A stretch of 50,130 nucleotides of DNA, from contig SIBU01000004.1 of assembly GCA_009695005.1 (NCBI GenBank), positions 1-50,130 of the forward strand. The letters are read 5' to 3'. How positions within the stretch are numbered: the first letter of the stretch is position 1; each line of letters opens with the position of its first letter. A program made the translations under genes and the position numbers. Shown here one piece after another: positions 9,392-43,535 of this stretch. The DNA comes from Candidatus Tayloriibacteriota bacterium (GTDB lineage: Bacteria > Patescibacteriota > Minisyncoccia > Phycocordibacterales > SIBU01). The notes under the pieces are model-generated. The model did no database searches. It saw only the letters and a program-made list of their open reading frames with translations, and had not been told where the DNA came from.

Positions 9392-9937
9392 ATGAGTAAA
9401 CAAAAAATAGAAGAGGGTAGAAATTGGTATGCGATCCACACATACGCTGGATACGAGAATGCCGTTGCCCGCAATTTAAAACAACGTATCGAGTCTCTGG
9501 GAATGGAGGATCGAATCTTTAACGTGCTTGTTCCAACTGAAAAGAAAATTAAAATCAAAGGCAATAAACGTGTTGAGGAGGAAGAGAAGATTTACCCAGG
9601 ATACGTTTTGGTTGATATGGTGGTAACGGACGATTCTTGGTATGTCGTTCGAAACACCCCGCGAGTTACCGGTTTCGTTGGGTCAGGAGTTTTTCCGGTC
9701 CCTCTAGATAAAAAGGAAGTGGAAGTTTTGTTCGGTCGCATGAATTCCGGTACAGTGAAGCACAATATTGATCTTGAACTCGATGATGCAGTGACGATTG
9801 TAGACGGACCTTTTAAAGACTTGGAAGGAAAGGTGGGAGAAGTGGACAGTGAGCGAGGTAAAATCAAGGTGCTTGTTAGTATGTTCGGTCGCGAGACACC
9901 AGTCGAACTAGATTTTCTTCAGGTCAAAAAAATCTAG
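9392..9937 (+). CDS. nusG: Transcription termination/antitermination factor NusG
   Basis: WYAIHTYAGYE, PGYVLVDM, VRNTPRVTGFVG and KOW domain with FGRETPVEL. Confidence 0.97.
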   Translation: MSKQKIEEGRNWYAIHTYAGYENAVARNLKQRIESLGMEDRIFNVLVPTEKKIKIKGNKRVEEEEKIYPGYVLVDMVVTDDSWYVVRNTPRVTGFVGSGVFPVPLDKKEVEVLFGRMNSGTVKHNIDLELDDAVTIVDGPFKDLEGKVGEVDSERGKIKVLVSMFGRETPVELDFLQVKKI

Positions 9938-9950
9938 TTCGACAGTTGTC

Positions 9951-10033
9951 AGATTTAAGATTATAGATTAAAGTACTGACTCCAAGATATGTTTTACTTA
10001 AATCTTAAATCTTTAATTTTTAATCTTTAATCA
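9951..10033. repeat. Inverted pair of 7-bp-period arrays (AGATTTA x3 ... TAAATCT x5) in the rplK leader
   Basis: AGATTTA AGATTAT AGATTAA at 9951-9971; TAAATCT TAAATCT TTAATTT TTAATCT TTAATCA at 9999-10033; 9951-9962 is the exact reverse complement of 10001-10012. Confidence 0.8.
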
Positions 10034-10039
10034 AATTTT

Positions 10040-10465
10040 ATGGCAAAAAAAGTAGTAAAAAAATTAAAATTGTTGATTGAAGGAGGAAAGGCTAATCCGG
10101 CCCCGCCGATTGGTCCTGCTCTCGGTCAAGCTAAAGTGAACATTGGTGAATTTGTCACCCGTTTTAATGCAGGCACCAAGGATATGAAAGGAGATTTGGT
10201 TCCAGTTGAAATTTCAGTTTACGAAGACCGAACTTTTGATTTAGTTTTTAAAACTTCTCCTGCCACCTCTCTTATTCTTAAGGCTATCGGTAAGGAAAAG
10301 GGTTCGGGGAAGAATGTGGTCAGTAAGGCAGGTACTATCACCAAGGCTAAAGTTCGTGAAATTGCAGAAAAGAAGCTCAAAGATTTGAATGCTAACGACG
10401 TCGAGGCTGCTATGAAAATTATCGAAGGTTCGTGCCGATCGATGGGGGTAGAAGTTAAGGGTTAA
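10040..10465 (+). CDS. rplK: 50S ribosomal protein L11 (uL11)
   Basis: [15 protein letters not shown] and [10 protein letters not shown]. Confidence 0.97.
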
Positions 10466-10499
10466 AAATTGGATTTAATTTTATTATTTTAGTTTTTAG

Positions 10500-10532
10500 A
10501 AAACCCGTCGCAACTTTGTAGCGACGGGTTTT
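10500..10532. terminator. Bidirectional intrinsic terminator after rplK
   Basis: 12-bp stem AAAACCCGTCGC/GCGACGGGTTTT between convergent genes. Confidence 0.85.
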
Positions 10533-10547
10533 CATATGCTTACGCTA

Positions 10548-11270
10548 TTAATTTTTTAATACTTCCAAAACGTAGTTTCGTTCCTGTAATAATTGACTGA
10601 GATCCATCTGGCTTTCGATGATGATGGGGATATTCTTATCTCGGATGGATTTGATAATGAGTTCTTGTTTTGTTTCAAACAGGGGATCGTGCAACTTCGC
10701 GAAGCCACTTAGATGAATTTCCGCGATGCGATCACCGAGGGTGCTATAAAAATCATGAGCCAGTTGCATGCTTGGGTCGTTCACAAAACAGTGATTGACG
10801 TCGAGTACCAATTTCCATGAGGAATTTTGTGCTAGAAGCTTTTCCATTTCCGCTACTGTACGATGAGATTTTTTATTCTTGTCCATATTTTCGAATCCGA
10901 TAGGGAAAGGTAGATCATTGAAGATTGACGAGTCCTGTATGCTGTCGGGGTGGACGATAAGGAGGTCGAGAGGACGCAGTTTGTGAAGGAGCATGATTTC
11001 GGAAAAGAATTTTTCGGTTTCTTTGTTCTTTCCGTACGGCAGTACCGGCGCGTGATAGCTGAGAAATGAAAAACCCTCAAGGTCTTCTTTGCGATACATG
11101 GCTAGGTCATCCTCGACCTGATCGATGGGGGTGATCTTTTTCAACTCAACAATTTTGATACCCTTTTCTTGAAGAAATTTTAGGATTTCATTTGGCTTGC
11201 TCTTTTGCCAGAAGCATCCAAGCGAAAATCCAATTTGGGAATTTGATAAGTTGAGGTTGTCATGTAACAT
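10548..11270 (-). CDS. TIM-barrel metalloenzyme, AP-endonuclease-2/xylose-isomerase-like fold
   Basis: SYHAP, IVHPD, GFENMD, LVLDVNH, EIHLSG, HDPL and IIIES metal-ligand pattern; last gene of the thyA-folA-dcd run. Confidence 0.7.
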   Translation of the reverse strand: MLHDNLNLSNSQIGFSLGCFWQKSKPNEILKFLQEKGIKIVELKKITPIDQVEDDLAMYRKEDLEGFSFLSYHAPVLPYGKNKETEKFFSEIMLLHKLRPLDLLIVHPDSIQDSSIFNDLPFPIGFENMDKNKKSHRTVAEMEKLLAQNSSWKLVLDVNHCFVNDPSMQLAHDFYSTLGDRIAEIHLSGFAKLHDPLFETKQELIIKSIRDKNIPIIIESQMDLSQLLQERNYVLEVLKN

Positions 11271-11275
11271 AGACG

Positions 11276-11926
11276 CTATTTATTGTCCTGCCCTTTTGTT
11301 ACTGAAAAGTCACTTTTAAGTTTTCGGATTTCACCACTCATGATGAGGCCAGCCTCTTTGCGTTTTTCACGGGCAACACCGTCGGCGATATCTTTTTTGT
11401 GATACTTACTCTTGCGGGCGTTCACTGGTTCAGAAAGTTCTTCAAATACTACCTGGCAGATGCGTTCTCCTGGGTAAAGGCGGACAACCTGGGACTCGGT
11501 ATTGTTTCTGATGGGAAGAGTGAGTTGGCCCTCATAGCCCGAGTCGATGATGCCGGTGAGGTCTAAGGACAATCCCTTGCGGTTTGTAGATGAGCGAGGA
11601 TATAACACTGCCATCAGGTCATTCGGCACTTTGATAGTTTCAAGAGTGCTCACTAATACATACTCGTGAGGGAGGAGTTCAAAATACTGAGCTTCTTCAA
11701 GTTCTACAACGTCAAAATATTCGGCGTTGTTTTTGTCGAAGTGAGTAATGTCTAGAGCTTCACGTCCTTTTGCGGTTAAATGCCAGACCTTCGGCACAAG
11801 AAAAGTAAAACCAAGGCGGAGATCAACAGCGTGTTCTTGAAGTTGGAAAGTGTCGAGGGATGGAGAAAAACCGATTTCTCCTTTTTGCAGACGCTCAATA
11901 ATTTGTTTTTTTGTAATTACGCTCAT
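11276..11926 (-). CDS. dcd: dCTP deaminase
   Basis: AVDLRLG, PRSSTNRKGL, GIIDSGYEGQLTL and ERICQVVFE. Confidence 0.92.
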   Translation of the reverse strand: MSVITKKQIIERLQKGEIGFSPSLDTFQLQEHAVDLRLGFTFLVPKVWHLTAKGREALDITHFDKNNAEYFDVVELEEAQYFELLPHEYVLVSTLETIKVPNDLMAVLYPRSSTNRKGLSLDLTGIIDSGYEGQLTLPIRNNTESQVVRLYPGERICQVVFEELSEPVNARKSKYHKKDIADGVAREKRKEAGLIMSGEIRKLKSDFSVTKGQDNK

Positions 11927-11961
11927 GGGAAGGGTTTAGTTAAGACGGATTCAATTTTATA

Positions 11962-12459
11962 CTAACTCTTGCGAATGTAAACTTGATATGTGGCGTCAAA
12001 TGGGTTTTTGTCGTCTTTAGTTTCCAACTTGGAAGTTGCCAGTAGCCAGTCACTAGCGGTAAAGTCGGGGAAGAAAGCGTCGCCTTCAAGAGTAGTGTGA
12101 ATTAGAGTGCGGTAAATTTTGTCGGCTTTTGGCATGCTTTCGACGTAGAGTTGCGAGCCACCAATAATAAAAACTTCCTCAATTTTAGGAGAAATTTTAA
12201 TGGCTTCCTCTAAGGAATGAACTATTGTGCAGCCCAAAGCTTTGAATGAGGGATTTCGGGTTACTACAATGTTTGTTCGATCGGGGAGAGGTTTTCCAAG
12301 CCTGGCAAAAATAGATTCATATGTATTTCTACCCATGATAACAGTATGACCTTTTGTGACAGTGGAAAAATGTTTTAGATCCCGTGGCATATACCAAGGG
12401 ATTTTATTCAAATGTCCGATGACGTTATTTTCTGATGTGGCGACGATAATGGATAACAT
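11962..12459 (-). CDS. folA: Dihydrofolate reductase
   Basis: IPWYMPRDLKHF, VIMGRNTYES, LPDRTNIVVTR and IIGGSQLY. Start placed at ATG 12459, right after the thyA stop. Confidence 0.95.
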   Translation of the reverse strand: MLSIIVATSENNVIGHLNKIPWYMPRDLKHFSTVTKGHTVIMGRNTYESIFARLGKPLPDRTNIVVTRNPSFKALGCTIVHSLEEAIKISPKIEEVFIIGGSQLYVESMPKADKIYRTLIHTTLEGDAFFPDFTASDWLLATSKLETKDDKNPFDATYQVYIRKS

Positions 12460-12460
12460 T

Positions 12461-13297
12461 TTATAAAACAATTTTTAAACCCTTGATGGGCTCTAGCGGT
12501 TGGTACTGGTTCGTGAGATTTTCCACGATTTCCTGTACAAGTTTTACATCCTGTTTTTCAGCGCGGTCGAAAGCATTTTTGGGAAGTGTTAGTGTAATTT
12601 TCTTGTGATTATTTGTGCGCTTCATCAATTCTTCAGCGGCAAAATAATGAGTATCGTAGACGTGAGCATTGGAAATAGAGTGAGAGTAGAAACCGGGACG
12701 TACACCGAGCTTTTGGGCAAGGATGTAGGCGAGAAGGGCAAACCCTGCTACGTCGGAAGGAAAGCCAAGGATAACATCATTAGAACGGACAATGTTGTGG
12801 AGATTAAGACGTCCACCGATGATGTTTACTGTAAAGGTGAAAGGGCAAGGAACATTTTTTTTGATAGCGCCACCTAGACCGTCTTGTGCGGGGTCCCAAG
12901 TGATGATCACACCGTGCCGTGAGCTCGGATCTTCTTTTAGAAGTTTTATTAAAAGTCCGAGTTGGTCGCGACCAAAATGTTTCCTCCAACGGTAACCGTA
13001 GGCAACTGTTACGACATCACCAGGATTGGTAAACATATCCCAAATTTTGGTGAATTGTCGTAAAAATATTTCTGGCTTTCTGGCACCGGTAATAAACCAT
13101 ATCTGCTCGGCCACGAACATAGGGATGGGAATTTTTCGCAATGTTAGAAGAGGGAAGCCGTCTTTTTCTAGATCGGTTGTGAAATGTACACCAGGCAGAG
13201 CCTTGGTTTCGTGTTTGGTACGGCAATTTACCTCCGCTATCCCTCGGGTCATAATATCGCGGAGTATTCCTTGATATATTTCATCGAATTTAAGCAT
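12461..13297 (-). CDS. thyA: Thymidylate synthase
   Basis: YGYRWR, PSSRHGVIITWDP, catalytic VPCP, RSND and NAHVYDTH. Confidence 0.95.
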   Translation of the reverse strand: MLKFDEIYQGILRDIMTRGIAEVNCRTKHETKALPGVHFTTDLEKDGFPLLTLRKIPIPMFVAEQIWFITGARKPEIFLRQFTKIWDMFTNPGDVVTVAYGYRWRKHFGRDQLGLLIKLLKEDPSSRHGVIITWDPAQDGLGGAIKKNVPCPFTFTVNIIGGRLNLHNIVRSNDVILGFPSDVAGFALLAYILAQKLGVRPGFYSHSISNAHVYDTHYFAAEELMKRTNNHKKITLTLPKNAFDRAEKQDVKLVQEIVENLTNQYQPLEPIKGLKIVL

Positions 13298-13372
13298 CGT
13301 ATACCGAATTGTAGTACATTTTTATATTTCCGCCAGTATCGTTAACTGGGGGAGTTTTGTTACAATACCTAT

Positions 13373-13888
13373 ATGAGTATTTCTTACCCATATTTGCCGG
13401 AGGGCCGGACAATAAAATATGTTCCAGCCCACGATCGATTCATGCGTGCCGCCGAAGACGCGTGCCGTGAACTTTCGACTGATCGACAGCACCCGACGAG
13501 TGCAGTGTTGGTAAAAGATGGCGTCGTGGTCTCCTCTGCGGCTAATCGTGCGGTACTTAAAAACTCCAAACTTCTCGCATTTCATCGGAAAGGTTGGTGT
13601 GTGCGGAAATTGCTCAAGACACCTTCGGGTCAAAAATATTGGCTTTGTCCCGGCTGCGCGTCGTCAAAGAACCACGCCGAAACTTCGGTGATGCGACTCG
13701 CGATAAAACAGGGCATTGATACCGAAGGTGCGGATATCTATCACTGGGGGCACTGGTGGTGTTGCAAGCCGTGCTGGGACTCAATGATCGCTGGTGGTAT
13801 CAGAAATGTATATCTTCTTGAAGAAAGCGACAAACTGTTTAATCCCAAATACCAGCAAAATATTATCGGTAAGCAGTTTAAGTTCTAG
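13373..13888 (+). CDS. Zn-dependent cytidine/dCMP deaminase family protein (ComEB/dCMP-deaminase-like)
   Basis: HAE...CCKPC zinc motif plus a CVR...PSGQKYWLC insert like dCMP deaminases; divergent from thyA. Confidence 0.8.
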   Translation: MSISYPYLPEGRTIKYVPAHDRFMRAAEDACRELSTDRQHPTSAVLVKDGVVVSSAANRAVLKNSKLLAFHRKGWCVRKLLKTPSGQKYWLCPGCASSKNHAETSVMRLAIKQGIDTEGADIYHWGHWWCCKPCWDSMIAGGIRNVYLLEESDKLFNPKYQQNIIGKQFKF

Positions 13889-13928
13889 CTTGTGCTAGAA
13901 TGCGATTACCATGGTGTAAGCTCCGAAA

Positions 13929-14012
13929 AGTTGTAAGTTGTAAGGTTTCAGATTTAATTAAGTCTGAATCTTTCCTGTATTGATGATAATTTTAATCTTA
14001 AATCTTTAATCT
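13929..14012. repeat. 7-bp-period arrays in the glyA 5' leader
   Basis: AGTTGTA AGTTGTA AGGTTTC AGATTTA at 13929-13956; TTAATCT TAAATCT TTAATCT at 13992-14012, ending 2 nt before the ATG. Confidence 0.7.
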
Positions 14013-14014
14013 TT

Positions 14015-15202
14015 ATGCAAGACAAACAAATAGAAAAATTGATAAAAGATGAGACGGCTCGTCAGAAAAAAGTAATTAATCTTATACCATCGGAGAATTA
14101 TGCCTCTGCGGATGTGTTGAAAGCTCTGGGCTCTATTTTTGATAACAAATACGCTGAGGGCTATCCACATAAAAGATACTATGGTGGTCAAACCTATACA
14201 GATCAGCTTGAAGATTTGGCAAAAGAAAGAGCGTTGAAACTTTTCAAACTTTCTTCGGAAAAGTGGCATGCTAATGTTCAGCCGCATTCAGGCTCACCAG
14301 CAAACCTTGCTGTTTATCTTGCTTTGGTTCCTTTAGGCGGAAAAATTATGGGAATGACACTCACAGCTGGAGGGCACCTCACTCATGGACAGAAGGTTTC
14401 GATGACAGGTAAGGCTTGGCAACAAGTTCCATATGGTGTTGATCCGAAAACTGAAGTGTTGAATTATGACTCATTGAAGGATTTGGCCGTTAAGGAAAAA
14501 CCAAATCTTATTATTGCGGGGTTTACGGCATACCCTCGGATGATAGATTTCAAAAAGTTTCGCGAAATTGCTGATGTCTCGAACGCTTTGCTTATGGTGG
14601 ACATGTCCCACTTTGCCGGATTGGTGGCGGGAGAAGTTTACAATTCACCGTTTGAATATGCGGATGTTGTGACGACTACAACCCATAAAACTTTGCGTGG
14701 TCCAAGAAGCGCTATAATTTTTTCCCGTAAAGATAAAATGTTGGGAGAGAAAGATATCTCAACACTAATCGACAAAGCGATTTTTCCCGGCCTTCAAGGT
14801 GGCCCACATTTAAGTCAGATTGCCGGAGTGGCTGTTGCTTTGAAAGAGGCTTCAACTCCCGCGTTCAGAAAATACGCTTCTCAGGTAGTAAAAAATGCTA
14901 AGGTTTTTGCCGATGAACTTATAAAGCTCGGCTGGCGTGTGATTTCTGGAGGTACCGATTCTCATTTGTTGCTCGTGGACACTTGGATGGGAGGCAAAGG
15001 AATTCCAGGTAAGGAGGCTGCCATAAAGCTCGAAGAGGAGGGGATTATTTGTAATTTCAATACTATTCCAGGAGAAACCCGCAGTGCTTTCGACCCGTCA
15101 GGAATCCGGATGGGAACGCCAGCGGAAACAACTCGTGGCAAGAAAGAGAAGGACTTCCGTGTTATCGCTCAGAAAATTAATTCAATTTTGCGAACCAAAT
15201 AG
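14015..15202 (+). CDS. glyA: Serine hydroxymethyltransferase
   Basis: YAEGYPHKRYYGG, NVQPHSGSPAN, PLP lysine in TTTHKTLRGPR and FPGLQGGPH. Confidence 0.97.
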   Translation: MQDKQIEKLIKDETARQKKVINLIPSENYASADVLKALGSIFDNKYAEGYPHKRYYGGQTYTDQLEDLAKERALKLFKLSSEKWHANVQPHSGSPANLAVYLALVPLGGKIMGMTLTAGGHLTHGQKVSMTGKAWQQVPYGVDPKTEVLNYDSLKDLAVKEKPNLIIAGFTAYPRMIDFKKFREIADVSNALLMVDMSHFAGLVAGEVYNSPFEYADVVTTTTHKTLRGPRSAIIFSRKDKMLGEKDISTLIDKAIFPGLQGGPHLSQIAGVAVALKEASTPAFRKYASQVVKNAKVFADELIKLGWRVISGGTDSHLLLVDTWMGGKGIPGKEAAIKLEEEGIICNFNTIPGETRSAFDPSGIRMGTPAETTRGKKEKDFRVIAQKINSILRTK

Positions 15203-15203
15203 T

Positions 15204-17417: not shown

Positions 17418-17420
17418 TCA

Positions 17421-17913: not shown

Positions 17914-19625
17914 TTGAAGAAAAAATAAGAAATTTAATAAAAGAAAGCTTAAAAAACCTTGAAATTGAAATCAGGGAAATTTCACTAGAGCATCCAGATG
18001 AGATCTCTCACGGAGATTATTCGACAAACGTGGCCCTCGTTCATGCAAAAGCACAAGGTGCGAACCCTCGGAAGCTAGCGGAGGAGATTGTACGATATAT
18101 CGAACAAAATAAATCGAAGGAAATTTTAAAGGTGGAGATTGCTGGTCCAGGGTTTATCAATTTTTATTTGTCGAGGGAATTTTTTACAGGCGAAGTTTTG
18201 GCTATATTGAAGGAGGGAGAAGATTTCGGTAAAAACTCTAAACTCGAAGGGAAAAAAGTAATGGTGGAGTACACAGATCCGAATCCCTTCAAGGAATTTC
18301 ATATTGGGCATTTGATGTCGAATGCTGTTGGGGAATCCATTTCCCGGCTTGTGCAGTTTCAGGCAGCAGAGGTAAAGCGAGCTTGTTATCAAGGGGATGT
18401 TGGGCTTCATGTGGCAAAGGCGGTGTGGGGCATGAAGGAGCAAATTAAGAACTCGAAACTCAAAATTCAAGAAATTACCGCCAAGAATTTGGGTGAGGTG
18501 TACGCCCTAGGGTCCGAGAAATATGAAACGGACGAAGCTGTCAAAGCGGAAATCATCAGTCTCAACAAGGCGATTTTTGATAAGTCTGACGCAGAGATGC
18601 AGGTGCTGTATGAAAAGGGTAGGAAAGTAAGTCTGGACTATTTCGAAACTATCTACAGAAGACTTGGTACTAATTTTGACTACAAGTTTTTTGAAAGCGA
18701 GACTGGACCGTTCGGCAAAAAGATCGTGGAAGAATTTCTTGGCCACGGAATATTTGAAAAAAGCCAAGGAGCTGTTGTTTTTCCTGGGGAAAAGCATGGC
18801 CTTCACACTAGGGTGTTTATTAATTCTCAAGGGCTTCCGACATATGAGGCAAAAGAATTAGGTCTGGCGAAGATTAAGTATGATATATACAAGTACGATC
18901 AGTCTATTGTTGTCACCGCCAACGAGGTCAATGAATATTTTAAAGTGCTTTTGTGTGTTATGAATCTCACTTTTCCGGAACTGGCCAAGAAAACAAAACA
19001 TCTATCTCATGGAATGTTGCGGTTACCAACGGGTAAAATGTCTTCACGAACCGGAAATATAATTACGGGAGAGTCGCTTATTTCTGCAGTTGAGGCAATG
19101 GTACATAAAAAATTGGAGGAGAGGGAACTAGAGATACATGAGAAAAGTAAAATTGCTGAGATTGTAGCGATTGGCGCCATCAAGTATTCAATTCTAAAAC
19201 AGGCAATAGGGAGTGACATTATTTATGATTTTGAAAAATCTATTTCGTTTGAGGGTGATTCTGGTCCTTACCTTCAGTACGCTTGTGTCAGGGCAACTTC
19301 AGTTTTGGAGAAAGCAAAAAAAGAAAATATTAAAGCTGCTCCGCCTGGAGACGGCGGAGCAGAAGAAGATGTTTCTTTGCTTGAGAAAATGCTTTCACGT
19401 TTTCCCGAGATTGTTGAAAGAGCTTCGTCTGAGTATTCGCCTCACTTTGTTGCGACATATTTAACCGAACTTGCGGGATCGTTTAATAACTATTACGCAC
19501 ATAATCAAATTGTTAATTCTTCTGACCCGCAATCTCCATACAAGGTTGCGATTACTGAATCTTTTGTCACTGTTATGAAAAACGGTTTATGGCTTCTTGG
19601 CATTAAAGTGCCAGAACACATGTAA
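17910..19625 (+). CDS. argS: Arginine--tRNA ligase
   Basis: GDYSTN, EYTDPNPFKEFHIGH, KMSSRTG and FEGDSGPYLQYA. Confidence 0.97.
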   Translation: MIEEKIRNLIKESLKNLEIEIREISLEHPDEISHGDYSTNVALVHAKAQGANPRKLAEEIVRYIEQNKSKEILKVEIAGPGFINFYLSREFFTGEVLAILKEGEDFGKNSKLEGKKVMVEYTDPNPFKEFHIGHLMSNAVGESISRLVQFQAAEVKRACYQGDVGLHVAKAVWGMKEQIKNSKLKIQEITAKNLGEVYALGSEKYETDEAVKAEIISLNKAIFDKSDAEMQVLYEKGRKVSLDYFETIYRRLGTNFDYKFFESETGPFGKKIVEEFLGHGIFEKSQGAVVFPGEKHGLHTRVFINSQGLPTYEAKELGLAKIKYDIYKYDQSIVVTANEVNEYFKVLLCVMNLTFPELAKKTKHLSHGMLRLPTGKMSSRTGNIITGESLISAVEAMVHKKLEERELEIHEKSKIAEIVAIGAIKYSILKQAIGSDIIYDFEKSISFEGDSGPYLQYACVRATSVLEKAKKENIKAAPPGDGGAEEDVSLLEKMLSRFPEIVERASSEYSPHFVATYLTELAGSFNNYYAHNQIVNSSDPQSPYKVAITESFVTVMKNGLWLLGIKVPEHM

Positions 19626-19626
19626 T

Positions 19627-22631: not shown

Positions 22632-25600
22632 ATGTCAGAAGAAAAAACTAAAAATCCTATAGCAGAAAGGGAAAAGAAAATTTTAAAATTTTGGCAGGAA
22701 AACAAAATTTTCGAAAAATCTGTGGCCAAGGCGGGGCCTAAAGGAGATTTTGTCTTTTATGAAGGTCCTCCAACTGCTAATGGCAAACCAGGCATTCATC
22801 ATCTTGAAGCTCGCGCATTTAAAGATGCTATTCCACGATATAAAACTATGCAGGGCTTTCGTGTGCGGAGAAAAGGTGGGTGGGATACCCATGGTTTGGC
22901 AGTGGAAATTCAAACTGAAAAAGAATTAGGTTTAAAATCAAAAAAAGAGATTGAGGCATATGGAGTTGATGCATTTAATAAGAAATGTCGGGAGAGTGTT
23001 TGGAGGTACGTTAAAGAGTGGGAGGAGTTTACGGAGCGAACAGGTTACTGGATTGATTTGAAACGGCCTTACGTTACATATAAACCTTACTATATTGAAT
23101 CAGTTTGGAATATTATTTCAAAAATAAATGAGCAGGGACTTTTGTACAAAGATTATAAGGTGGTTCCGTGGTGTCCGAGGTGTGGAACAGGACTTTCGAG
23201 TCATGAACTAGCTCAGGGGTATGAGGATGTGAAGGACTTGTCGGTTACAGTAAAATTCAAACTAACAAATAACAATCAACAACTTGCAACTGAAGGTGGA
23301 GAGACTTACTTGCTTGCGTGGACTACGACGCCGTGGACATTGCCGGGGAATGTGGGATTGGCGGTTGGGAATAAAGTAAAATACGTAAAAGTTAAAGTTG
23401 GTGAGGAATTTTATATTTTAGCCAAAGAAAGACTGACCTCGGTCATGAAAGATAAGGAACATGGGGTTATTGAGGAGTTGTTGGGGGAAAAACTTGTGGG
23501 TCTAGAATACGAACCTCTTTATCCATTTCTCAAAGACAATCTTTCGGAAACTGAAAAACTGAAACTAAAGAATGCGTTTAAGGTCTACGTGGCGGATTTT
23601 GTGACCACAACGGATGGCACAGGTATCGTGCACACCGCAGTGATGTACGGTACGGATGACTTTGATCTTGGCACAAAAGTTGGCTTGCCAAAGCATCATT
23701 TGGTTAACGATGACGGTACTTTCAAAAAAGAAACTGCTTTTTTAGCAGGTAAATTCGTAAAAGACGAAGCGACCGATGTGGAAATTATAAAAGATTTAGC
23801 GCACCGAGGATTGCTTTTTTCGAAAGAAAAATACTCACACAGTTATCCGCACTGCTGGCGTTGTCACACCCCGCTTATCTATTTTGCACGCGACTCGTGG
23901 TATATCAAAATGTCCGCTCTCCGAGACAAGCTTGTCGCTGGAAACCAATCAATTAATTGGGAGCCTTCATATATTAAAGAAGGGCGGTTTGGCGAGTGGC
24001 TTAAGGATATAAAAGATTGGGCAATTTCTCGAGAGCGTTATTGGGGTACACCACTCCCGGTATGGGAGTGCACTTCGTGTGATAAGCGTAAAATGATCGG
24101 ATCTTTTGATGAATTGTTTTTGAACGGACAGGGTAAAAAACTTACTCGACTTGTTTTGGTTCGCCACGGAGAAAGCGAAAAAAATATTCTAGAGTTGTAC
24201 GATATTTCTCGTGACGGTTATCCCTTAACAACCGCTGGCAGAAAATCAGCTGAAGAGGCTGGAGAAAAATTAAAAAAACTTGGAAAGATTGATGCGATTT
24301 ACACATCTCCAGTTATTCGCGCTTGTCAAACCTCAGAAATTATTGGAAAGGTGTTTGGTGTGGAGCCAGTTTTGTCTGATGAGTTGTGGGAGGTTAAAAG
24401 CGGTGAGTGGGAAGGATTGAATGACAGTTCTATTGATAAAAGGGAAGACAAGAAATTTTATGATAAACTTTCACATGAAGATTACTATCAAACTTCACGA
24501 GGTAAGACGGGTGAGAGTTGGCAGGATGTTGAAAACAGAATGACTTCTTTTGTTAAGGGAATTTTAAAAAAACATCAAGGAGAAACTGTCGTTGTTGTTT
24601 CTCACGAAGGTCCACTTATGGTTTTGCTTCGTTATTTGAAGGAGTTATCTCTTGATGAAATTATTAATCTTTGGGAAGAACGTAGGGCATTTCATAGAGG
24701 ACTTTTGGGTGAATACGCTGAACCGACAAATGTTTATATCAGTAATCAGACTGGTAATGAGATTGACCCTCACCGTCCTTTCATCGACGATTTTGTTTTG
24801 AAATGCGACTGCGGAAAGGAAATGAAGAGGGTCAAGGAGGTGATGGATGTTTGGCTTGATTCTGGTGCGATGCCGTTTGCGCAAGAACATTATCCGTTCA
24901 AAAACAAAGAAGAAATTGATTCGGGTAAAGGATACCCGGCGGATTATATTTCCGAGGCAATTGACCAAACTCGTGGTTGGTTTTACACACTTCATGCTGT
25001 CGGTACGCTTCTGGGGAAGGGCAATGCATATAAGAACGTTATTTGTCTTGGGCACATTCTTGATGGAGAGGGAAAGAAAATGTCTAAATCGCTGGGGAAC
25101 GTTGTTGATCCGAATTTGATGATGGAAAAATATGGCGCGGATGCTTTAAGGTTTTGGATGTACAGTATAAATCAACCAGGTGAGCCGAAAAACTTCGATG
25201 AAAAAACCGTTGATGAGATTGTTAAAAAAGTTTTTAATCTCGCTGGGAATGTCCTCGCCTTTTATCATTTGTATGCTTCTTCGCTAAACCCTAAACCCTC
25301 TATCTTAAATCCTGTTCACGTTTTGGATGTTTGGATTGTTGCACGACTCAATCAACTTGTTGGAGAAGTTACAACTTCGCTCAACGCGTACCAATTGCTC
25401 GAACCAACGCGCGCCATTCGGGATTTCATTGCCGACTTGTCGCAGTGGTATTTGCGCCGTTCACGCGAGCGGATTAAAAATGGTGGGGAAGATGCGCAGG
25501 CCGCTTTGAGCACTTTGAAATTTGTGCTTTGTGAATTGTCTAAACTGATGGCTCCGTTCACGCCATTTTTTGCTGAATTTTTGTACAAAGAAGTTGGAGG

Positions 25601-26159
25601 AGAAAATGAGAGTGTACATTTAGAATCCTGGCCGACAATAGATTCAAAATTTAAGATTGAAGATTCAAGAAAAATTCTTGAGGAAATGGAGGAAATTAGA
25701 AGGATTGTGTCACTGGCACTTGAGCAGCGCGCAAAGGCTAACATAAAAGTTCGTCAACCTCTTTCTTCTCTTAAGCTCAAATCTAAAATCTTGAATCTTG
25801 AATCTGGAGTGTCTAATTTGATACAAGAAGAAGTGAATGTTAAAAAAGTTGTGTTTGACGCTAACATTTTAAGTGACGTGGAATTAGACACGACTATTAC
25901 TCTCGAACTTAAGGAAGAAGGCAATGTCAGAGAGTTTGTTAGGGCGATTCAGGATTTACGCAAAACAACTGGTTTGAGTGCCAGTGACGTAGCTTCGCTT
26001 ACTGTTGATACCGATGAGAAAGGTGTGCGATTTGTAAAAAAGTTCGAAAGTGAACTTATGAAGATGACTCAGCTCAGAGAAATAAAATTTGTTTCTATTG
26101 ATGAAGGTTTTATGATTTTAATTGATGATTTTTCAATGAAAATTTCGGTTCAAAAATAG
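22632..26159 (+). CDS. ileS: Isoleucine--tRNA ligase, type 2, with GIHH signature and an inserted histidine-phosphatase domain
   Basis: EGPPTANGKPGIHH, WTTTPWTL, DGTGIVHTA, WAISRERYWGTP, KMSKS and QDLRK; extra RHGE...SHEG domain at about 24130-24750. Confidence 0.96.
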   Translation: MSEEKTKNPIAEREKKILKFWQENKIFEKSVAKAGPKGDFVFYEGPPTANGKPGIHHLEARAFKDAIPRYKTMQGFRVRRKGGWDTHGLAVEIQTEKELGLKSKKEIEAYGVDAFNKKCRESVWRYVKEWEEFTERTGYWIDLKRPYVTYKPYYIESVWNIISKINEQGLLYKDYKVVPWCPRCGTGLSSHELAQGYEDVKDLSVTVKFKLTNNNQQLATEGGETYLLAWTTTPWTLPGNVGLAVGNKVKYVKVKVGEEFYILAKERLTSVMKDKEHGVIEELLGEKLVGLEYEPLYPFLKDNLSETEKLKLKNAFKVYVADFVTTTDGTGIVHTAVMYGTDDFDLGTKVGLPKHHLVNDDGTFKKETAFLAGKFVKDEATDVEIIKDLAHRGLLFSKEKYSHSYPHCWRCHTPLIYFARDSWYIKMSALRDKLVAGNQSINWEPSYIKEGRFGEWLKDIKDWAISRERYWGTPLPVWECTSCDKRKMIGSFDELFLNGQGKKLTRLVLVRHGESEKNILELYDISRDGYPLTTAGRKSAEEAGEKLKKLGKIDAIYTSPVIRACQTSEIIGKVFGVEPVLSDELWEVKSGEWEGLNDSSIDKREDKKFYDKLSHEDYYQTSRGKTGESWQDVENRMTSFVKGILKKHQGETVVVVSHEGPLMVLLRYLKELSLDEIINLWEERRAFHRGLLGEYAEPTNVYISNQTGNEIDPHRPFIDDFVLKCDCGKEMKRVKEVMDVWLDSGAMPFAQEHYPFKNKEEIDSGKGYPADYISEAIDQTRGWFYTLHAVGTLLGKGNAYKNVICLGHILDGEGKKMSKSLGNVVDPNLMMEKYGADALRFWMYSINQPGEPKNFDEKTVDEIVKKVFNLAGNVLAFYHLYASSLNPKPSILNPVHVLDVWIVARLNQLVGEVTTSLNAYQLLEPTRAIRDFIADLSQWYLRRSRERIKNGGEDAQAALSTLKFVLCELSKLMAPFTPFFAEFLYKEVGGENESVHLESWPTIDSKFKIEDSRKILEEMEEIRRIVSLALEQRAKANIKVRQPLSSLKLKSKILNLESGVSNLIQEEVNVKKVVFDANILSDVELDTTITLELKEEGNVREFVRAIQDLRKTTGLSASDVASLTVDTDEKGVRFVKKFESELMKMTQLREIKFVSIDEGFMILIDDFSMKISVQK

Positions 26160-26899: not shown

Positions 26900-26993
26900 C
26901 ACGTTCTGGTGGTTTTCTATGATAAAATATCCTTGTACTTTTCTCATTTTTTGTCATCAATTTTAGGTTTTGCGTTTTAATTTCTAAACTTTC

Positions 26994-37327: not shown

Positions 37328-37412
37328 CAATTATAAACCCATCGAGTGGCGGAACGAAGAGTGAGAGTGTGCTTTTAACGGTGGTTTTTCTATGCTACTC
37401 TTTCCGCACTAT

Positions 37413-38693: not shown

Positions 38694-38713
38694 GGCCGTG
38701 ATATAATTTTATT

Positions 38714-39577
38714 ATGTTTGATTATATCGATGTACACTCCCACGTTAATTTTAACGCTTTTGATGTTGATCGGGATGAGACTATTAAACGTGCACTCGAT
38801 GCTGGTGTTTATGTTATTAATGTTGGTACTCAACAAGATACCTCAAAGAAGGCGGTTGAAATGGCCGAAAAATATGAACGGGGAGTGTATGCCATTGTCG
38901 GTCTTCATCCGGTTCACACAGGAAAATCTTTTCACGATGTTAAAGAGTTGGGAGAAGGGAATCGCGAGTTCACTTCTCGCGGAGAGGTTTTTGATAAAAA
39001 TTATTATTTAGAATTGGCTAGGCATCCGAAAGTTGTCGGAATAGGGGAATGCGGACTGGATTATTACAGATTTAAGATTGAAGATTTAAGTTGGAAGAAA
39101 GAATTGGAGAAGCAGGAGGAAACATTTCGAAAGCACATTGAATTGGCGATTGAGGTAGGCAAGCCACTTATGCTCCATGTTCGTAACGGGGGAGGCCGCT
39201 CGGCTTATCGTGACTCTCTTTCTATTCTTAAATCTTACAACTTTAATCTTAAATCTTCCCCAGGAGACTTCCATTTTTTTGCCGGCTCGTGGGAGGAAGC
39301 CAAAGAGATTCTTGATGCCGGTTTTAATCTCTCGTTCACCGGGGTCATCACTTTTGCTCGCGATTATGATGAGGTAATTAAAAACACTCCACTCGACCGA
39401 ATAATGACCGAAACAGACAGTCCTTACGTGTCACCAGTTCCTTATAGGGGTAAGCGTAACGAACCTCTGTATGTTCAGGAAGTCGTAAAGGCTATTGCCA
39501 ACATTAGAAATGAGAACTTTGAAATAGTCAAAAAACAGCTAGTTGCAAATGCAATAAGATTTTTCAGTCTTTTTTAA
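38714..39577 (+). CDS. tatD: TatD family hydrolase/DNase
   Basis: DVHSH, GLHP, GIGECGLDYY, LMLHVR and ETDSPY. Confidence 0.93.
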   Translation: MFDYIDVHSHVNFNAFDVDRDETIKRALDAGVYVINVGTQQDTSKKAVEMAEKYERGVYAIVGLHPVHTGKSFHDVKELGEGNREFTSRGEVFDKNYYLELARHPKVVGIGECGLDYYRFKIEDLSWKKELEKQEETFRKHIELAIEVGKPLMLHVRNGGGRSAYRDSLSILKSYNFNLKSSPGDFHFFAGSWEEAKEILDAGFNLSFTGVITFARDYDEVIKNTPLDRIMTETDSPYVSPVPYRGKRNEPLYVQEVVKAIANIRNENFEIVKKQLVANAIRFFSLF

Positions 39578-39663
39578 GCGTGTTTCTGGTTGCTTGTGGC
39601 TATTTTGTTGGCTATTTACGCTTGCTCTTGCGCGAGTAGGACGGCTGTGCTAGTCTGTAACGC

Positions 39664-40161
39664 ATGACCGAAAAGATTCAAGTAGAGCAAGCAGAAAACC
39701 GAATTTACGAGTTGGGCTATCTTGTCGTCTCGTCAATTCCTGAGGAAAAACTTCCTGCTGAAGTTACTATAATTAAAGATTTGTTGGAAACTAATGGAGC
39801 AGTTTTTGTTTCCGAAGAGTCGCCAAGGCTTAAGCCTTTGGCCTACCAGATGACTAAAATTGTAGGACCTAAGCATCTCAAATTTGATACCGCTTACTTT
39901 GGTTGGGTAAAGTTTGAAATGAATCCAGTTTCCGTTGAAGTCGTTAAGAAGACCTTAGAGCGCAATGATAGTGTAATTCGATTTATTCTTGTGAAAACTG
40001 TTCGAGAAAATACTATGTCTGTTATTAAGGCTCCAAATTATCGCTCTGAAGAGAAGTCGATTCCTGGAATTGGCACGGATGCAAAAAAGGAAGTTGTCGT
40101 TAAGTCACCAATGACAGAAGCCGAACTTGATAAGACAATTGAACAGCTTATCGTTGAATAA
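39664..40161 (+). CDS. rpsF: 30S ribosomal protein S6 with C-terminal extension
   Basis: YELGYL, LAYQM and VIRFILVK; first gene of rpsF-ssb-rpsR. Confidence 0.9.
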   Translation: MTEKIQVEQAENRIYELGYLVVSSIPEEKLPAEVTIIKDLLETNGAVFVSEESPRLKPLAYQMTKIVGPKHLKFDTAYFGWVKFEMNPVSVEVVKKTLERNDSVIRFILVKTVRENTMSVIKAPNYRSEEKSIPGIGTDAKKEVVVKSPMTEAELDKTIEQLIVE

Positions 40162-40163
40162 AA

Positions 40164-40628
40164 ATGTATTTAAATAAAGCAATAATTATTGGTAATTTAA
40201 CACGAGAGCCTGAGATGAGGGCGTTGCCAAGTGGAATTCAGGTTTGCAGTTTCAGTGTTGCTACCAACCGAGTTTGGAAAGATAAAGAGGGTAACAAGAA
40301 GGAGCAAGCAGATTTTCATAACATTGTGGTATTTGGGAGACAAGCTGAGACAGCCGGACAGTATTTAAAGAAAGGTCAATCAGTACTTGTTGAAGGAAGA
40401 ATTCAGACCCGAAGTTGGGATGACAAGGAGGGTTCAAAGAAATATCGAACAGAGATTGTAGCTGATAGGGTCCAGTTTGGACCAAAGGCTGGAGCAGCTC
40501 CTTCGGGCGGTGGAGGAAGTTATGGAGGTTCTAAGTCGGACGCAGGAGGTTCTTCCGGTCCAGCAGAACCGGCAGGAGGTATTGAATACCCAACAGACGA
40601 GATTAACCCAGAAGACATTCCATTTTAA
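40164..40628 (+). CDS. ssb: Single-stranded DNA-binding protein
   Basis: [33 protein letters not shown] and acidic tail EDIPF. Confidence 0.97.
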
Positions 40629-40638
40629 TTACAAAAAT

Positions 40639-40839
40639 ATGAAACAGTGTTACTTTTCACAAAATAATATCAAGTACATAGACTACAAGGATGTGGAGCT
40701 TTTGAAAAAGTTTCTTAATCCTCATGCTCGTATGTTGTCCCGTAAGAAGACCGGTGTTACCGCTAAGAACCAGCGAAAGCTCGCCGAAGCTGTTAAGCGC
40801 GCACGTGTTATGGGACTTTTGCCTTTCGTTTCTAGATAG
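40639..40839 (+). CDS. rpsR: 30S ribosomal protein S18
   Basis: [18 protein letters not shown] and AVKRAR..GLLPF. True start is ATG 40639. Confidence 0.95.
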
Positions 40840-40873
40840 TTTCGGTATTATTTCTGAGTTATTTTATATTTTT

Positions 40874-41149
40874 ATGGCTGAGAATTTAGATGGAAATAAT
40901 AGAGAAGCAGCCTATTTGGAAGCTGTGGGGAGCGAAGATTTTGATAAATTCAGTGCTTTTCTCGCCACTTTACCTGATGATGCTTCAAGAATCAAGGTTG
41001 TAGGGGATGCTATTATCCGGATGGATAAAAAAGCTGTAAAACCTTTGAACCCTTTTCTAACTCCCCATGAAGCATCACGTAGGAATGAGGGAGCCTTTGT
41101 TGTCAGGTTGGATCAGCTGGAGCGTGATTTAAAATACGGTCCTAAATAA
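40874..41149 (+). CDS. Small hypothetical protein (91 aa)
   Basis: Start ATG 40874 after rpsR; helical, charged sequence ending before a terminator. Confidence 0.55.
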   Translation: MAENLDGNNREAAYLEAVGSEDFDKFSAFLATLPDDASRIKVVGDAIIRMDKKAVKPLNPFLTPHEASRRNEGAFVVRLDQLERDLKYGPK

Positions 41150-41181
41150 TTAAGGTACTACAGGTCGAGGTATTGGTATTT

Positions 41182-41215
41182 AAAAACTCCCGAGGACAAT
41201 CCTCGAGAGTTTTTT
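41182..41215. terminator. Bidirectional terminator between the 40874 ORF and efp
   Basis: AAAAACTCCCGAGG/CCTCGAGAGTTTTT stem, immediately followed by a heptamer array at 41222-41242. Confidence 0.8.
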
Positions 41216-41247
41216 GTTACTTAAATCTTTAATCTTTAATCTGACAA

Positions 41248-41817
41248 CTAGTTCACTCTTTCCACATAATCTCCTGTTTCTGTGTTCACTCGGATGATTT
41301 CTCCTTGATTGATGAACATCGGGACGTTTACAGTTGCGCCGGTTTCGAGTGTGACGGTCTTTGTACCACCCTGGACGGTGTTTCCCTTCACTGCATCAGC
41401 AGCTTCGGTAACTTTAAGCTCTACCTTTATAGGGAGCTTGAAACCGACATGTCTGTCTTGAAATGAAAGTATTTGTAATATAGTGTTTGGTTTGAGAAAT
41501 TTTCCTTGAGGTCCGACAAGCTCTTCTTTCATGGCATAGCGTTTTGTGGGGTCAGCAGGATCTGAGAACCAGAATTCGCCACGATTACTGTAAAGAAATT
41601 TCGCATCTCGTGAATCAATTTCCGCTTCTTCCACCTTTTCAGAGACGTGAAAAGAAATTTCCTTGACCGATCCAGAGATAAGATTTTTCAACTTAGTCGC
41701 GTTAACCGGTTTTCGCTGTTGCTTGCGGAAAACATGCGACGTCAAAACTTCATACGGTTCTTTTTCGTAAATGATGTACTTTCGCTCTTTGATCTCGTTG
41801 TATTCCAAAAGACTCAT
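41248..41817 (-). CDS. efp: Elongation factor P
   Basis: KLKNLISG, TLETGATVNVPMFINQGEIIRVNTETGDYVER. Start placed at ATG 41817. Confidence 0.93.
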   Translation of the reverse strand: MSLLEYNEIKERKYIIYEKEPYEVLTSHVFRKQQRKPVNATKLKNLISGSVKEISFHVSEKVEEAEIDSRDAKFLYSNRGEFWFSDPADPTKRYAMKEELVGPQGKFLKPNTILQILSFQDRHVGFKLPIKVELKVTEAADAVKGNTVQGGTKTVTLETGATVNVPMFINQGEIIRVNTETGDYVERVN

Positions 41818-41967
41818 GGTATTCCTGCGTTTAATCAATAATAGAGGGCATTCTAACCAATAGGAGTAAAAAAGTCCAGACTGCTATTGACGTTCTTATA
41901 TTTTTATATATAATACAAAACGGTTAAAATAAACTTTTCGATTAGAGAAAAGAGAAAGACAAAAAAT

Positions 41968-42213
41968 ATGGACATCAGAAGTCAGTTGCTTCAGGGCGCG
42001 TCCGCTACGGACCTTGCTCGAAGATACGGGTTAGAGGTTGTACGCGATGAGATTGAAGAAATGATTAGCCACGATCTGGCTGATCGAGCGCTTAACGCTG
42101 CCATCAGTCTCCGTAACGACGTTCTCATTCAGATGGCAGCTCGCGTCATATTATGTAGTGGAAGCTACGGGGAAGGGGCAAATACGCTTGCCAAACAACA
42201 CTCCCGTGCTTAG
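41968..42213 (+). CDS. Small hypothetical protein (81 aa)
   Basis: Own promoter TTGACG (41887-41892) -16- TATAAT (41909-41914) and a GTAGC/GCTAC hairpin with T run downstream. Confidence 0.55.
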   Translation: MDIRSQLLQGASATDLARRYGLEVVRDEIEEMISHDLADRALNAAISLRNDVLIQMAARVILCSGSYGEGANTLAKQHSRA

Positions 42214-42391
42214 TGTATCCGTACCAAAATGGTAGCTCTTCATTGGCTACTGTTTTTTTTGAAAAGAATTGGTCCGATAGGAACCATATTAATTTGCAAA
42301 AGATTTTATTACATCGCCATTACAACATCGGGAACGTCTTTCCATGTTAAGCAAATCACGCACCTACCGTCCAAATTACACAAAGGGTGTT

Positions 42392-43495
42392 TTATTCTCC
42401 TGTTTCTTCGCCTCCGTTTCCACCTGTGCCGGTAAAGTCACCGTCTTTGAGACGCTTTTTAATTTCCTTTAGGATTTCATCAGCTACCTTTTTATTTTCC
42501 TTGAGGAATTGGCGGGTGGCGTCATAACCACGGCCAAGTTTAAGATTTTCAACTTTTTCTCCCTTTTTGTCAGATTTTTGTACAGGTGTATATTCATATG
42601 ACTGCCCAACCTTTTTTATGAGAAGCATCTTCTCACCGAGTGCGATGATTTCTCCTTCACGAGAAATACCTTCGTTGTACATGAGGTCAAACTCCGTTTG
42701 TTTAAAAGGAGCGGCCACTTTGTTCTTCACTACTTTCACGCGAATGCGGCCTCCCATAATTTCTTCACCCTTTTTGATTTGAGCTATTCGTCTGATGTCT
42801 AGACGTACGGATGTGTAGAACTTAAGCGCCTTGCCTCCTGGGGTTGTCTCTGGATTGCCGAACATCACGCCGATTTGCATGCGGATTTGGTTGATGAAGA
42901 TGACGATAGTTTTCGACTTGGCGACAATGGCTGTCAGCTTTCGAAGGGCTTGTGACATAAGGCGAGCTTGCTTGCCGACATGAGATTGTCCCATATCACC
43001 TTCGATTTCGTCTTTGGGGGTCAGGGCTGCCACCGAGTCGATAACTATTACGTCGAGTTTGCCAGAACGCACAAGTGATTCCACAATCTCGAGCGCTTGC
43101 TCGCCTGTGTCCGGTTGGGAAATGAGAAGTTCGTCTATTTTTACACCGAGACGTTTGGAGTATTCAGGGTCCATAGCGTGTTCGGCATCAATGAAAGCGC
43201 AGATGCCACCTTTTTTTTGAGCTTCAGCAATGACATGAAGGCAGAGTGTTGTTTTACCTGAAGATTCAGGGCCGAATATTTCAATGATACGTCCACGAGG
43301 GAGGCCACCAACACCTAGCGCTGAGTCCAGACCGATTGAGCCGGTGGAAACGGCATTGATGTCCACACGGGGCTTCTCTCCAAGTTTCATGATGGAATCC
43401 TCACCGAATTTTGTCTTTATAGCGTTAAGAGTGTCCTCAATACTTGAGCTTGTGGTTTTTAACTCCTTTTCTTTTTTTGGTTTTCCGAATGCCAT
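42392..43495 (-). CDS. recA: Recombinase A
   Basis: [25 protein letters not shown] and [12 protein letters not shown]. Confidence 0.98.
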
Positions 43496-43500
43496 ATGAA

Positions 43501-43535
43501 TAGTAATTAGTTAGTAGTAGATAGTTTATAGTATA
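43501..43535. repeat. Five-unit 7-bp-period array directly upstream of recA
   Basis: TAGTAAT TAGTTAG TAGTAGA TAGTTTA TAGTATA, ending 5 nt before the recA ATG on the minus strand. Confidence 0.7.

Follow-up and report, generated by a model that had tools for sequence, protein, structure and literature searches.

Bacterial rRNA genes may hold intervening sequences (IVSs) with an open reading frame (ORF) for an S23p protein, in Leptospira as well as in Coxiella burnetii. Heptanucleotide repeats are said to have been described in cyanobacteria by Mazel in 1990, as short tandemly repeated repetitive (STRR) sequences. The 23S rRNA IVS of C. burnetii has a 28-bp terminal stem and is cut out by RNase III; its S23p start is directly preceded by tandem heptamers, (GACAGAT)3-4, whose number varies between strains (Warrier et al., 2016; PMC4990558). 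The S23p protein of Xanthomonas is a homopentamer (PMC4990558), and the solved relatives in its family, PF05635, are pentameric rings of four-helix bundles. Xanthomonas genomes also contain 70-75 convergent heptamer pairs each, located by stop and start codons (Rehm et al., 2015; PMC4692102). Here we analyze a family of tandem heptamer arrays in a 50,130-nt stretch of a Candidatus Tayloriibacteriota genome (contig SIBU01000004.1, positions 1 to 50,130; contig C11 in our numbering, hereafter the window). We think it fairly probable that these arrays are the arms of small IVS-like hairpin elements of Paceibacteria, tied to PF05635 (S23p, or 23S-rRNA-IVS protein).

Heptamer arrays and the plan of the element

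The genome under study (G000; relatives are labelled G001, G002, and so on) is a 794-kb, ~89%-complete assembly of 24 contigs from Paceibacteria (Patescibacteria, or candidate phyla radiation), placed near Candidatus Taylorbacteria and Nomurabacteria. By our own ORF calls, its coding fraction is 87%, with ~13% intergenic; gene calls in the relatives are simple ORF calls made in this analysis. Genes were named by Pfam (NusG, L11, SHMT, ArgRS, RecO, RecA, TatD, EF-P), and ileS by alignment with relatives. Strict thresholds in the style of Tandem Repeats Finder missed most arrays; relaxed thresholds were adopted together with a null model, a third-order Markov chain (Markov-3), against which array counts were judged.

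A first-pass annotation, made from the letters of the window, had listed 14 arrays with a 7-bp period and proposed that they belong to a genome-wide family. Both statements hold. Tandem Repeats Finder and direct reading of the sequence place period-7 arrays at the coordinates given, and self-identity at lag 7 is 0.55-0.88 at all 14 sites, as against 0.14-0.50 at lags 5, 6, 8, and 9. Scores as high as those of the listed sites are reached by 6e-6 to 3.6e-3 of equal-length segments genome-wide. Ten sites are strong (9951, 9999, 13929, 13992, 25285, 25640, 25778, 39068, 39229, and 41222); the four that are weak alone (18441, 23264, 26959, and 43501) each have a clear array at the orthologous place in a congener. 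Across the genome, we found 22 lag-7 arrays where 2.0 ± 0.7 are expected, and 30 strong arrays of the AGATTWA/TWAATCT family in a unit scan where 4.6 ± 1.8 are expected. Lags 4, 5, 8, 10, 11, and 13 show no departure from expectation, and multiples of 3 are elevated, as coding DNA predicts, so that lag 7 is the sole excess among the tested lags that are not multiples of 3. As many as 14 of the 22 arrays are intergenic, an enrichment in non-coding DNA. Dispersed tandem 7-nt units in at least two to three copies, above chance and mostly outside genes, are what defines heptanucleotide repeats of the STRR type and of the long simple sequence repeat (LSSR) type. An artefact of chance or codon usage in an AT-rich genome might appeal to sites 18441 and 26959, weak by themselves, but the Markov-3 counts, the restriction of the excess to lag 7, and the intergenic enrichment refute it and leave it next to no probability. 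Chance is ruled out, and the period-7 arrays of this genome are genuine.

The building block is a half-element, CTTTTTCTTACT(TAAATCT)n, placed 0-7 nt ahead of a start codon. An inverse copy follows the preceding stop codon, and the two together fill the spacer as a hairpin. The plan seen genome-wide is a stop codon, (AGTTGTA/AGATTWA)n AGTAAGAAAA, a loop of 27-133 nt, TTTTCTTACT (TWAATCT)n, 0-20 nt, and ATG. The start-proximal arm is pyrimidine-rich and lacks G; as in the convergent pairs of Xanthomonas, the purine-rich strand follows the stop, and its complement precedes the start. The earlier claim that the AGATT-type arm always comes first proved right when checked genome-wide against the Markov-3 null: the order AGATT...AATCT is seen in six strict pairs and in two with weaker 5' arms (glyA and ileS), eight in all, and the opposite order in none. 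The genes downstream are rplK, glyA, rplQ, rpsI, rplR, atpF, another atp-operon gene, mraZ, and a GTPase gene.

Copies share a non-repeat inner core, AGTAAGA...TCTTACT. The same element, inner core included, occurs in G046, a genome from another family of the order, while the exact 14-mer was not found in most other families nor in two congeners. The loops of separate copies are unrelated in sequence and length. Minimum-free-energy folds pair the arms at rplK, ileS, tatD, atp1, and rplR, and partly at rplQ. Fold z-scores run from +0.1 (rplQ) to -3.9, and they are between -1.8 and -3.9 for most elements, whose arms pair; of the four pairs for which base-pairing had been proposed at first, three thus do pair, glyA being the exception. 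Pair order, folds, and flank complementarity (see below) all show terminal inverted repeats able to form a long stem, as in IVSs. The window copies occupy mRNA spacers and ORFs rather than an rRNA helix, and no part of the window matches an Rfam family at its gathering score, L1/L10 leaders and rRNA included.

Association with PF05635 genes

The full-length version of the element is found in G005. Its atpG-atpD spacer holds a cassette of ~455 nt in which AGATTTA/TAAATCT arms surround a PF05635 ORF (121 aa, 106.5 bits). On the 5' side, AGATTTA AGATTAA AGATTTA AGTAAG is followed by the ATG of this ORF; on the 3' side, ACT TAAATCT TAAATCT TTAATCT is followed by the ATG of atpD. More generally, lag-7 arrays adjoin the PF05635 gene at 10 of 12 loci of the order, on both sides at seven. 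Unit sequences are specific to the cassette and vary from one to another. In 19 of 28 PF05635 cassettes, the complementarity of a gene's own two flanks lies above the 95th percentile for mismatched pairs (Mann-Whitney p = 6e-13), and purine content is 0.60 in the 5' flanks vs 0.42 in the 3' flanks.

For a comparison of genomes, we took 20-100 kb, away from PF05635 genes, from each of 18 genomes of the order, all but two from different families. The nine without PF05635 have two arrays in 720 kb (1.3 expected), and the nine with it have 67 in 770 kb (~2 expected; Mann-Whitney p = 1.9e-4 for array density; Spearman rho 0.90 between copy number and density). In the sampled genomes, arrays are thus at chance level without PF05635 and abundant with it, and the association with four-helix-bundle genes that had been suggested as a check is strongly positive in relatives. 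Shine-Dalgarno (SD) motifs are equally scarce in both groups. Seven of the nine PF05635-positive genomes have a median same-strand spacer of 51-99 nt, compared to 13-60 nt in the negative ones, which fits with inflation of spacers by these elements.

We also considered an origin of the arrays from diversity-generating retroelements (DGRs) and rejected it, as reverse transcriptase (RT) genes do not track the arrays: the array-rich G003, G052, G057, and G040 have no RT, and the RT-positive G007 and G055 have no arrays. The choice left by the first-pass annotation, between a mobile process and a protein- or RNA-structure site, is narrowed by these comparisons, if not made: arrays go with PF05635, and neither with SD-less translation in general nor with RTs. 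Of the PF05635 hits below the cut-off, 7 of 12 lie beside RT genes. Low-scoring hits (17-37 bits, one just over the cut-off) within about 2 kb of an RT were seen in G025, G033, G035, G041, G042, G045, and G053, as expected for the Avd proteins of DGRs. PF05635 seems to comprise two sub-families with different partners, the strong hits being stand-alone cassettes with heptamer arms. A further weak match is in the window itself, where residues 34-133 of a 311-aa ORF (46797-47732, forward strand) align to the whole PF05635 model at 17.4 bits, below the cut-off. This ORF is a member of a large family in Patescibacteria, with 1903 homologues at E <= 1e-5, is called a DeoR-family regulator in some records, and has no flanking arrays.

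A second PF05635 ORF of G005 lies inside the 16S rRNA gene, in its 5' part just past the 27F primer site (G005:C4:300-1700, stretch positions 430-960), between inverted period-7-like arms GCCAACA.../...TGTTGGT. This is the classical arrangement of an ORF-bearing IVS, in 16S instead of 23S rRNA. Another gap in this 16S gene, ~1.4 kb long, falls between model positions 873 and 874. The only PDB sequence match of the G005 PF05635 protein is 2GSC, the Xanthomonas S23p pentamer.

Several observations weigh against a tie between the arrays and PF05635, or against the hairpin as such. No intact PF05635 gene is present in the 89%-complete assembly of the study genome. The only copy there, at C1:~750-1190, is a pseudogene with internal stops and arrays of another unit family (AGGGTAT type), upstream of a conserved gene starting MRFQVPQFIE. 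A PF05635 gene within AGATTTA-type arms was found in G005 only; G001, G003, and G046 have AGATTTA elements without such a gene, and no cognate gene for this family was found in these three genomes or in the study genome. G002 lacks PF05635 yet keeps period-7 arrays, mostly inside ileS. The correlation is drawn from 18 sampled genomes with statistics that ignore kinship. Pairing of the arms is imperfect, with unit-sized bulges, and the intergenic fold z-scores are modest, about -1 to -2.7; glyA and atpF fold otherwise, the glyA arms being unpaired in the minimum-free-energy fold. Finally, arms within ORFs flank essential coding sequence, so excision is inapplicable there.

The C1 cassette has an intact ortholog in G003, and PF05635 cassettes of other unit types accompany the MRFQVPQFIE gene in G009, G015, G021, and G041 too. 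The AGGGTAT/AGGGTTT units recur at the very start of another contig (C13:9-43), and heptamer arrays of this kind may contribute to assembly breaks in such genomes.

Filled and empty sites and the copies in the window

In the nusG-rplK spacer, the element is present in the study genome and in G003, a remnant is left in G002, and the site is empty (0-31 nt) in G004, G006, G012, and G013. The atpG-atpD spacer, filled in G005, is only 3-28 nt long in eight relatives; this site is not in the assembly of the study genome. The intergenic copies are therefore insertions relative to congeners. In other relatives, the same spacers hold hairpins of different units: ATACGAA/TTCGTAT with a period of ~7-8 (nusG-rplK, G001), AACCAAA/TTTGGTT type (nusG-rplK, G009), and AAAATCA/TGATTTT (atpG-atpD, G015). 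Either these gene boundaries were invaded again and again, or one unit was replaced by another at a fixed site.

The presence or absence of elements at orthologous sites, their palindromic architecture, and their patchy spread over genomes could also be explained by a non-autonomous transposon mobilised by a conventional transposase (e.g., of the RAYT or IS200 Y1 type), as in repetitive extragenic palindromic (REP) sequences or MITEs (miniature inverted-repeat transposable elements), with PF05635 as mere passenger cargo. MITEs have terminal inverted repeats and target-site duplications, and their copies are alike over the full length. Here the loops of the copies are unrelated (27-133 nt), and no target-site duplication is visible by inspection between filled and empty nusG-rplK and atpG-atpD sites. 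In addition, the 5' arm within tatD replaces sequence rather than being inserted as a unit, and no transposase turned up beside the elements examined, though no systematic transposase search was made. We consider this origin very improbable.

Between the study genome and G003, 38 of 38 nt are identical from the nusG stop through the 5' arm, including a non-consensus AGATTAT unit, and the 3' arm is ~90% identical; the loop has diverged. Four-fold degenerate sites of the two genomes are 35% identical (n = 787), that is, saturated. Since the arm is identical while silent sites are saturated, the nusG-rplK copies are constrained or actively homogenised rather than decaying relics. The same comparison bears on the arrays as a pure mutational by-product, heptanucleotide slippage repeats tolerated in spacers and loops, with no identity as elements and no trans-factor. 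Slippage would agree with the excess of period 7 across Paceibacteria with many unrelated units, with unit numbers that differ between orthologous copies, and with in-gene arrays that keep their position and switch unit type between species; it is also the idea put forward for LSSRs (Mrazek, 2007, as summarised in PMC4679880). However, it does not account for the conserved non-repeat inner core, the convergence of all eight pairs, the identical element in a genome of another family (G046), the chance-level arrays in PF05635-negative genomes of the same order, or the 38 conserved positions. Slippage as the whole explanation thus appears improbable to us.

At nusG-rplK and glyA, the window has versions of the element that contain no gene, and half-elements lie at the 3' end of efp and in the leaders of recO and recA; none of the loops of the window copies contains a PF05635 ORF. 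All copies are on the forward strand unless stated otherwise. The 5' arm of the nusG-rplK element (9943-9975), CAGTTGTC AGATTTA AGATTAT AGATTAA AGT, begins 6 nt past the nusG stop (9935-9937). The loop (9976-9995), which has diverged between the study genome and G003, is followed by the 3' arm (9996-10033; lag-7 identity 0.84), ACT TAAATCT TAAATCT TTAATTT TTAATCT TTAATCA. In the glyA leader, the 5' arm (13928-13958), AAGTTGT AAGTTGT AAGGTTT CAGATTT AAT, mixes AGTTGTA and AGATTTA units, and the 3' arm (13990-14012) consists of three perfect units, TTAATCT TAAATCT TTAATCT. Immediately after the efp stop, a half-element on the reverse strand (41216-41247), TAG TTGTC AGATTAA AGATTAA AGATTTA AGTAAC, has a terminator-like hairpin in place of a loop. 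A weak T-rich period-7 array (26959-26993) abuts recO; G001 has an array at the orthologous place. The recA leader array (43501-43535, reverse strand), CTATACT ATAAACT ATCTACT ACTAACT AATTACT, is of a unit type with an ACT core. As had been observed at the outset, arrays abut start codons: the distance to the ATG is 6 nt for rplK (ATG at 10040), 2 nt for glyA (14015), 0-1 nt for recO (26994), and 5 nt for recA.

The remaining copies are in frame within genes. Degenerate arrays are found in argS at about residue 177 (18441-18476), where the equivalent residue position in G005 carries a clear (AGATTCA CGATTCA)n array, and in ileS at about residue 211 (23264-23292), with clear heptamer arrays at residues 205-246 in G001, G002, and G003. 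In variable loops of IleS lie the array TAAACCC TAAACCC TCTATCT TAAATCC (25285-25313), which is the reverse complement of the AGGGTTT family flanking the C1 pseudogene, and the AGATT-type arm AGATTCA AAATTTA AGATTGA AGATTCA AG (25640-25669). The AATCT-type arm of ileS (25771-25805), TTAAGCT CAAATCT AAAATCT TGAATCT TGAATCT, is preceded by CTCTTTCTTCTCT, which looks like the inner core; homologous arrays are present in G001 and G002. In tatD, the AGATT-type arm (39068-39097) reads AGATTTA AGATTGA AGATTTA AGT TGG AAG and replaces sequence of near-equal length in relatives. The AATCT-type arm (39222-39256), CTATTCT TAAATCT TACAACT TTAATCT TAAATCT, grows from the conserved ILKS codons, ATT CTT AAA TCT; at this site, G003 has TAAATCT TATAACT CACAACT TAAATCT. 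Period-7 arrays, often with other units, also occupy these loop positions of IleS, TatD, and ArgS in G001, G002, G003, and G005. The units once listed as variants of one consensus are partly separate families: the array at 25285 belongs to an AGGGTWT family, and the array at 43501 and the TACAACT units share an AACT core.

What lies between the in-gene arms is conserved protein core, namely the LMLHVR motif in TatD and the EEMEE...KVRQPL segment in IleS, and the arms sit in variable surface loops that more distant relatives lack. Because the arms flank native conserved sequence, those in ileS, tatD, and argS are not an inserted cassette; an RPE-like insertion (RPE, Rickettsia palindromic element) and a translational-bypass element are rejected likewise, the ORFs being continuous. 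That the arrays are lineage-specific additions, and not ancient protein sequence, is borne out both by the empty orthologous intergenic sites in congeners and by the position of the in-gene arrays in variable loops. It had also been argued that three units, being 21 nt, are frame-neutral and could enter genes. This is correct as far as it goes, but pure units put TAA into each of the three frames, and the in-gene units (TGAATCT, CAAATCT, TACAACT, AGATTGA) depart from the consensus exactly at the would-be in-frame TAA.

Translation context, possible mechanism, and related systems

SD motifs are barely used in the study genome. Its 16S rRNA gene is absent from the assembly; the 16S 3' tails of G005 (GGAGUAUUUCAAUUG; ...GGAACCUGCUCGUGGAGUAUUUCAAUUG; C4, stretch L140, ~2299-2400) and G009 (...GGAUUAUUUCAAAUUG; C4, stretch L137, ~5074-5170) lack the anti-SD CCUCC, which fits with the near-absence of SD motifs. 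Among 781 upstream regions of the study genome, TATAAT-like hexamers peak at -12 to -7 from the start in 51 genes (background ~10-15), which suggests that many mRNAs of this organism are leaderless. Two roles of the arrays in this context were tried and rejected. As a replacement for the anti-SD interaction they fail, since the G005 and G009 tails are not complementary to TAAATCT arrays and UUGAAA is not enriched before starts; a general role as -10 boxes of leaderless mRNAs is contradicted by their variable distance to the start (0-20 nt), with no fixed register.

A broader possibility is that the G-free, pyrimidine-rich heptad array is a host leader, a cis-element for SD-independent initiation read by S1, a cold-shock protein, or the ribosome, its inverted arm being an "anti-leader" melted by the terminating ribosome and thus providing translational coupling, with no mobile cassette. 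It would suit a lineage without SD motifs and anti-SD sequence, where arrays end 0-7 nt before start codons, mostly in the TAAATCT sense, and serve highly expressed genes (rplK, rplQ, rplR, rpsI, atpF, glyA, dnaK). TAAAT and TTAAT are ~3.3-3.5-fold enriched before starts in general, arm conservation exceeds the neutral level, and the same role has been proposed for TAACTGA repeats (MacGregor, 2015; PMC4679880). On the other hand, a pure host leader is weakened by the lack of arrays in PF05635-negative relatives that are just as poor in SD motifs. Congeners have no element in the same spacers, some arrays lie within ORFs or follow stop codons, and the orientation before the PF05635 start codon is AGATT. 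We regard this explanation as unlikely.

If the arrays are instead arms of IVS-like elements, the full-length form would run from the stop codon of gene A through a purine-rich array to the ATG of a PF05635 gene, and from the stop of the latter through the complementary pyrimidine-rich array to the ATG of gene B. By analogy with rRNA IVSs, the arms would pair in the transcript to form an A/U-rich stem of 21-35 bp that draws the upstream stop and the downstream start together, and the stem would probably be cut by RNase III, which is encoded in the study genome at C21:39611-40003 and in all eight relatives checked. After such a cut, the downstream cistron would begin with a very short leader free of G, suiting a lineage that has no SD pairing and seems to have many leaderless mRNAs. 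The PF05635 ring would likely be the trans-factor, binding, spreading, or maintaining the arrays.

More tentatively, PF05635 rings and heptanucleotide arrays might be two halves of one widespread system. A pentameric four-helix-bundle protein would then read about four or five tandem heptamers and thereby propagate, maintain, or regulate hairpins that punctuate gene boundaries. Such a system could cover the cyanobacterial STRRs, the GGGAATC pairs of Xanthomonas, the TAACTGA repeats, the rRNA IVSs, and the hairpins of Paceibacteria, which, having no SD pairing, might have co-opted them as RNase III-cut cistron separators that yield near-leaderless mRNAs. STRR heptamers (1990) and the S23p proteins of IVSs (1990s) have gone without explanation for decades and are handled apart in the literature searched. 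In the present lineage, arrays and PF05635 are coupled both physically, with the gene between arrays, and statistically, and the coupling makes the question testable with a small, easily expressed protein and a defined ligand of 21-35 nt. It is also relevant to the expression of operon-internal genes in bacteria that lost the anti-SD, and to the way in which essential enzymes such as IleS, ArgS, and TatD acquire new surface-loop sequence.

RPEs, REPs, and bacterial interspersed mosaic elements (BIMEs) are small palindromic repeats in operon spacers, and RPEs are tolerated in frame at surface positions. Unlike an RPE, which inserts as one whole palindrome, the in-gene arms of TatD and IleS lie on either side of native conserved sequence. 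REPs need RAYT transposases and are not composed of tandem heptamers.

The analogy with cyanobacterial STRRs, drawn at the outset, is apt. Like STRRs and LSSRs, the arrays are lineage-specific tandem heptamer families, dispersed and mostly intergenic (Mrazek, 2007, as cited in PMC4679880). STRR arrays, however, are longer and are not described as stop-to-start hairpins, while for LSSRs slippage alone would leave the inner core, the pairing, and the PF05635 link unexplained.

The GGGAATC/GGGGAYT repeats of Xanthomonas and Nostoc (PMC4692102) are another related system. They too are dispersed heptamer arrays enriched between co-oriented ORFs, with the purine-rich strand at most 50 bp after a stop and the complement at most 50 bp before a start, and with few units per array, four being preferred; the arrays described here likewise have few. 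Xanthomonas, like the PF05635-positive relatives, encodes S23p (solved pentamer, PDB 2GSC), although PMC4692102 draws no link between the heptamers and PF05635. They differ in that the Xanthomonas and Nostoc units are G-rich and read as G-quadruplex formers, whereas those of Paceibacteria are A/T-rich without G-tracts, and the start-proximal arm has no G at all.

The TAACTGA repeats of Beggiatoaceae, some Cyanobacteria, and Bacteroidetes (MacGregor, 2015; PMC4679880) are also heptamers a few nucleotides before starts. Their arrays of 2-6 units precede genes without SD sites, including ribosomal-protein genes, as do the arrays of the study genome. In both cases, the forward unit has stops in all three frames, with few ORF copies at tolerant positions. 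The distribution of TAACTGA repeats is patchy and looks horizontal. They differ in having a single unit sequence, one reported inverted pair, and no identified associated gene; the units of the present elements are TWAATCT, TACAACT, and others, some of which share only an AACT core with TAACTGA.

With rRNA IVSs, the elements share terminal inverted repeats, the Coxiella stem of ~28 bp being four heptamers long. They also share a PF05635 ORF in the loop (here in relatives) with tandem heptamers right before its start, and the existence of gene-less versions; a true rRNA copy, in 16S, is present in the congener G005. They differ from rRNA IVSs in that they are located in mRNA spacers and in frame within genes, that both arms consist of tandem heptamers, and that there are dozens of copies per genome. 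On the strength of these parallels, the arrays appear to be related to IVSs, as IVS-like elements of mRNA spacers whose closest kin would be the ORF-bearing IVSs of rRNA genes.

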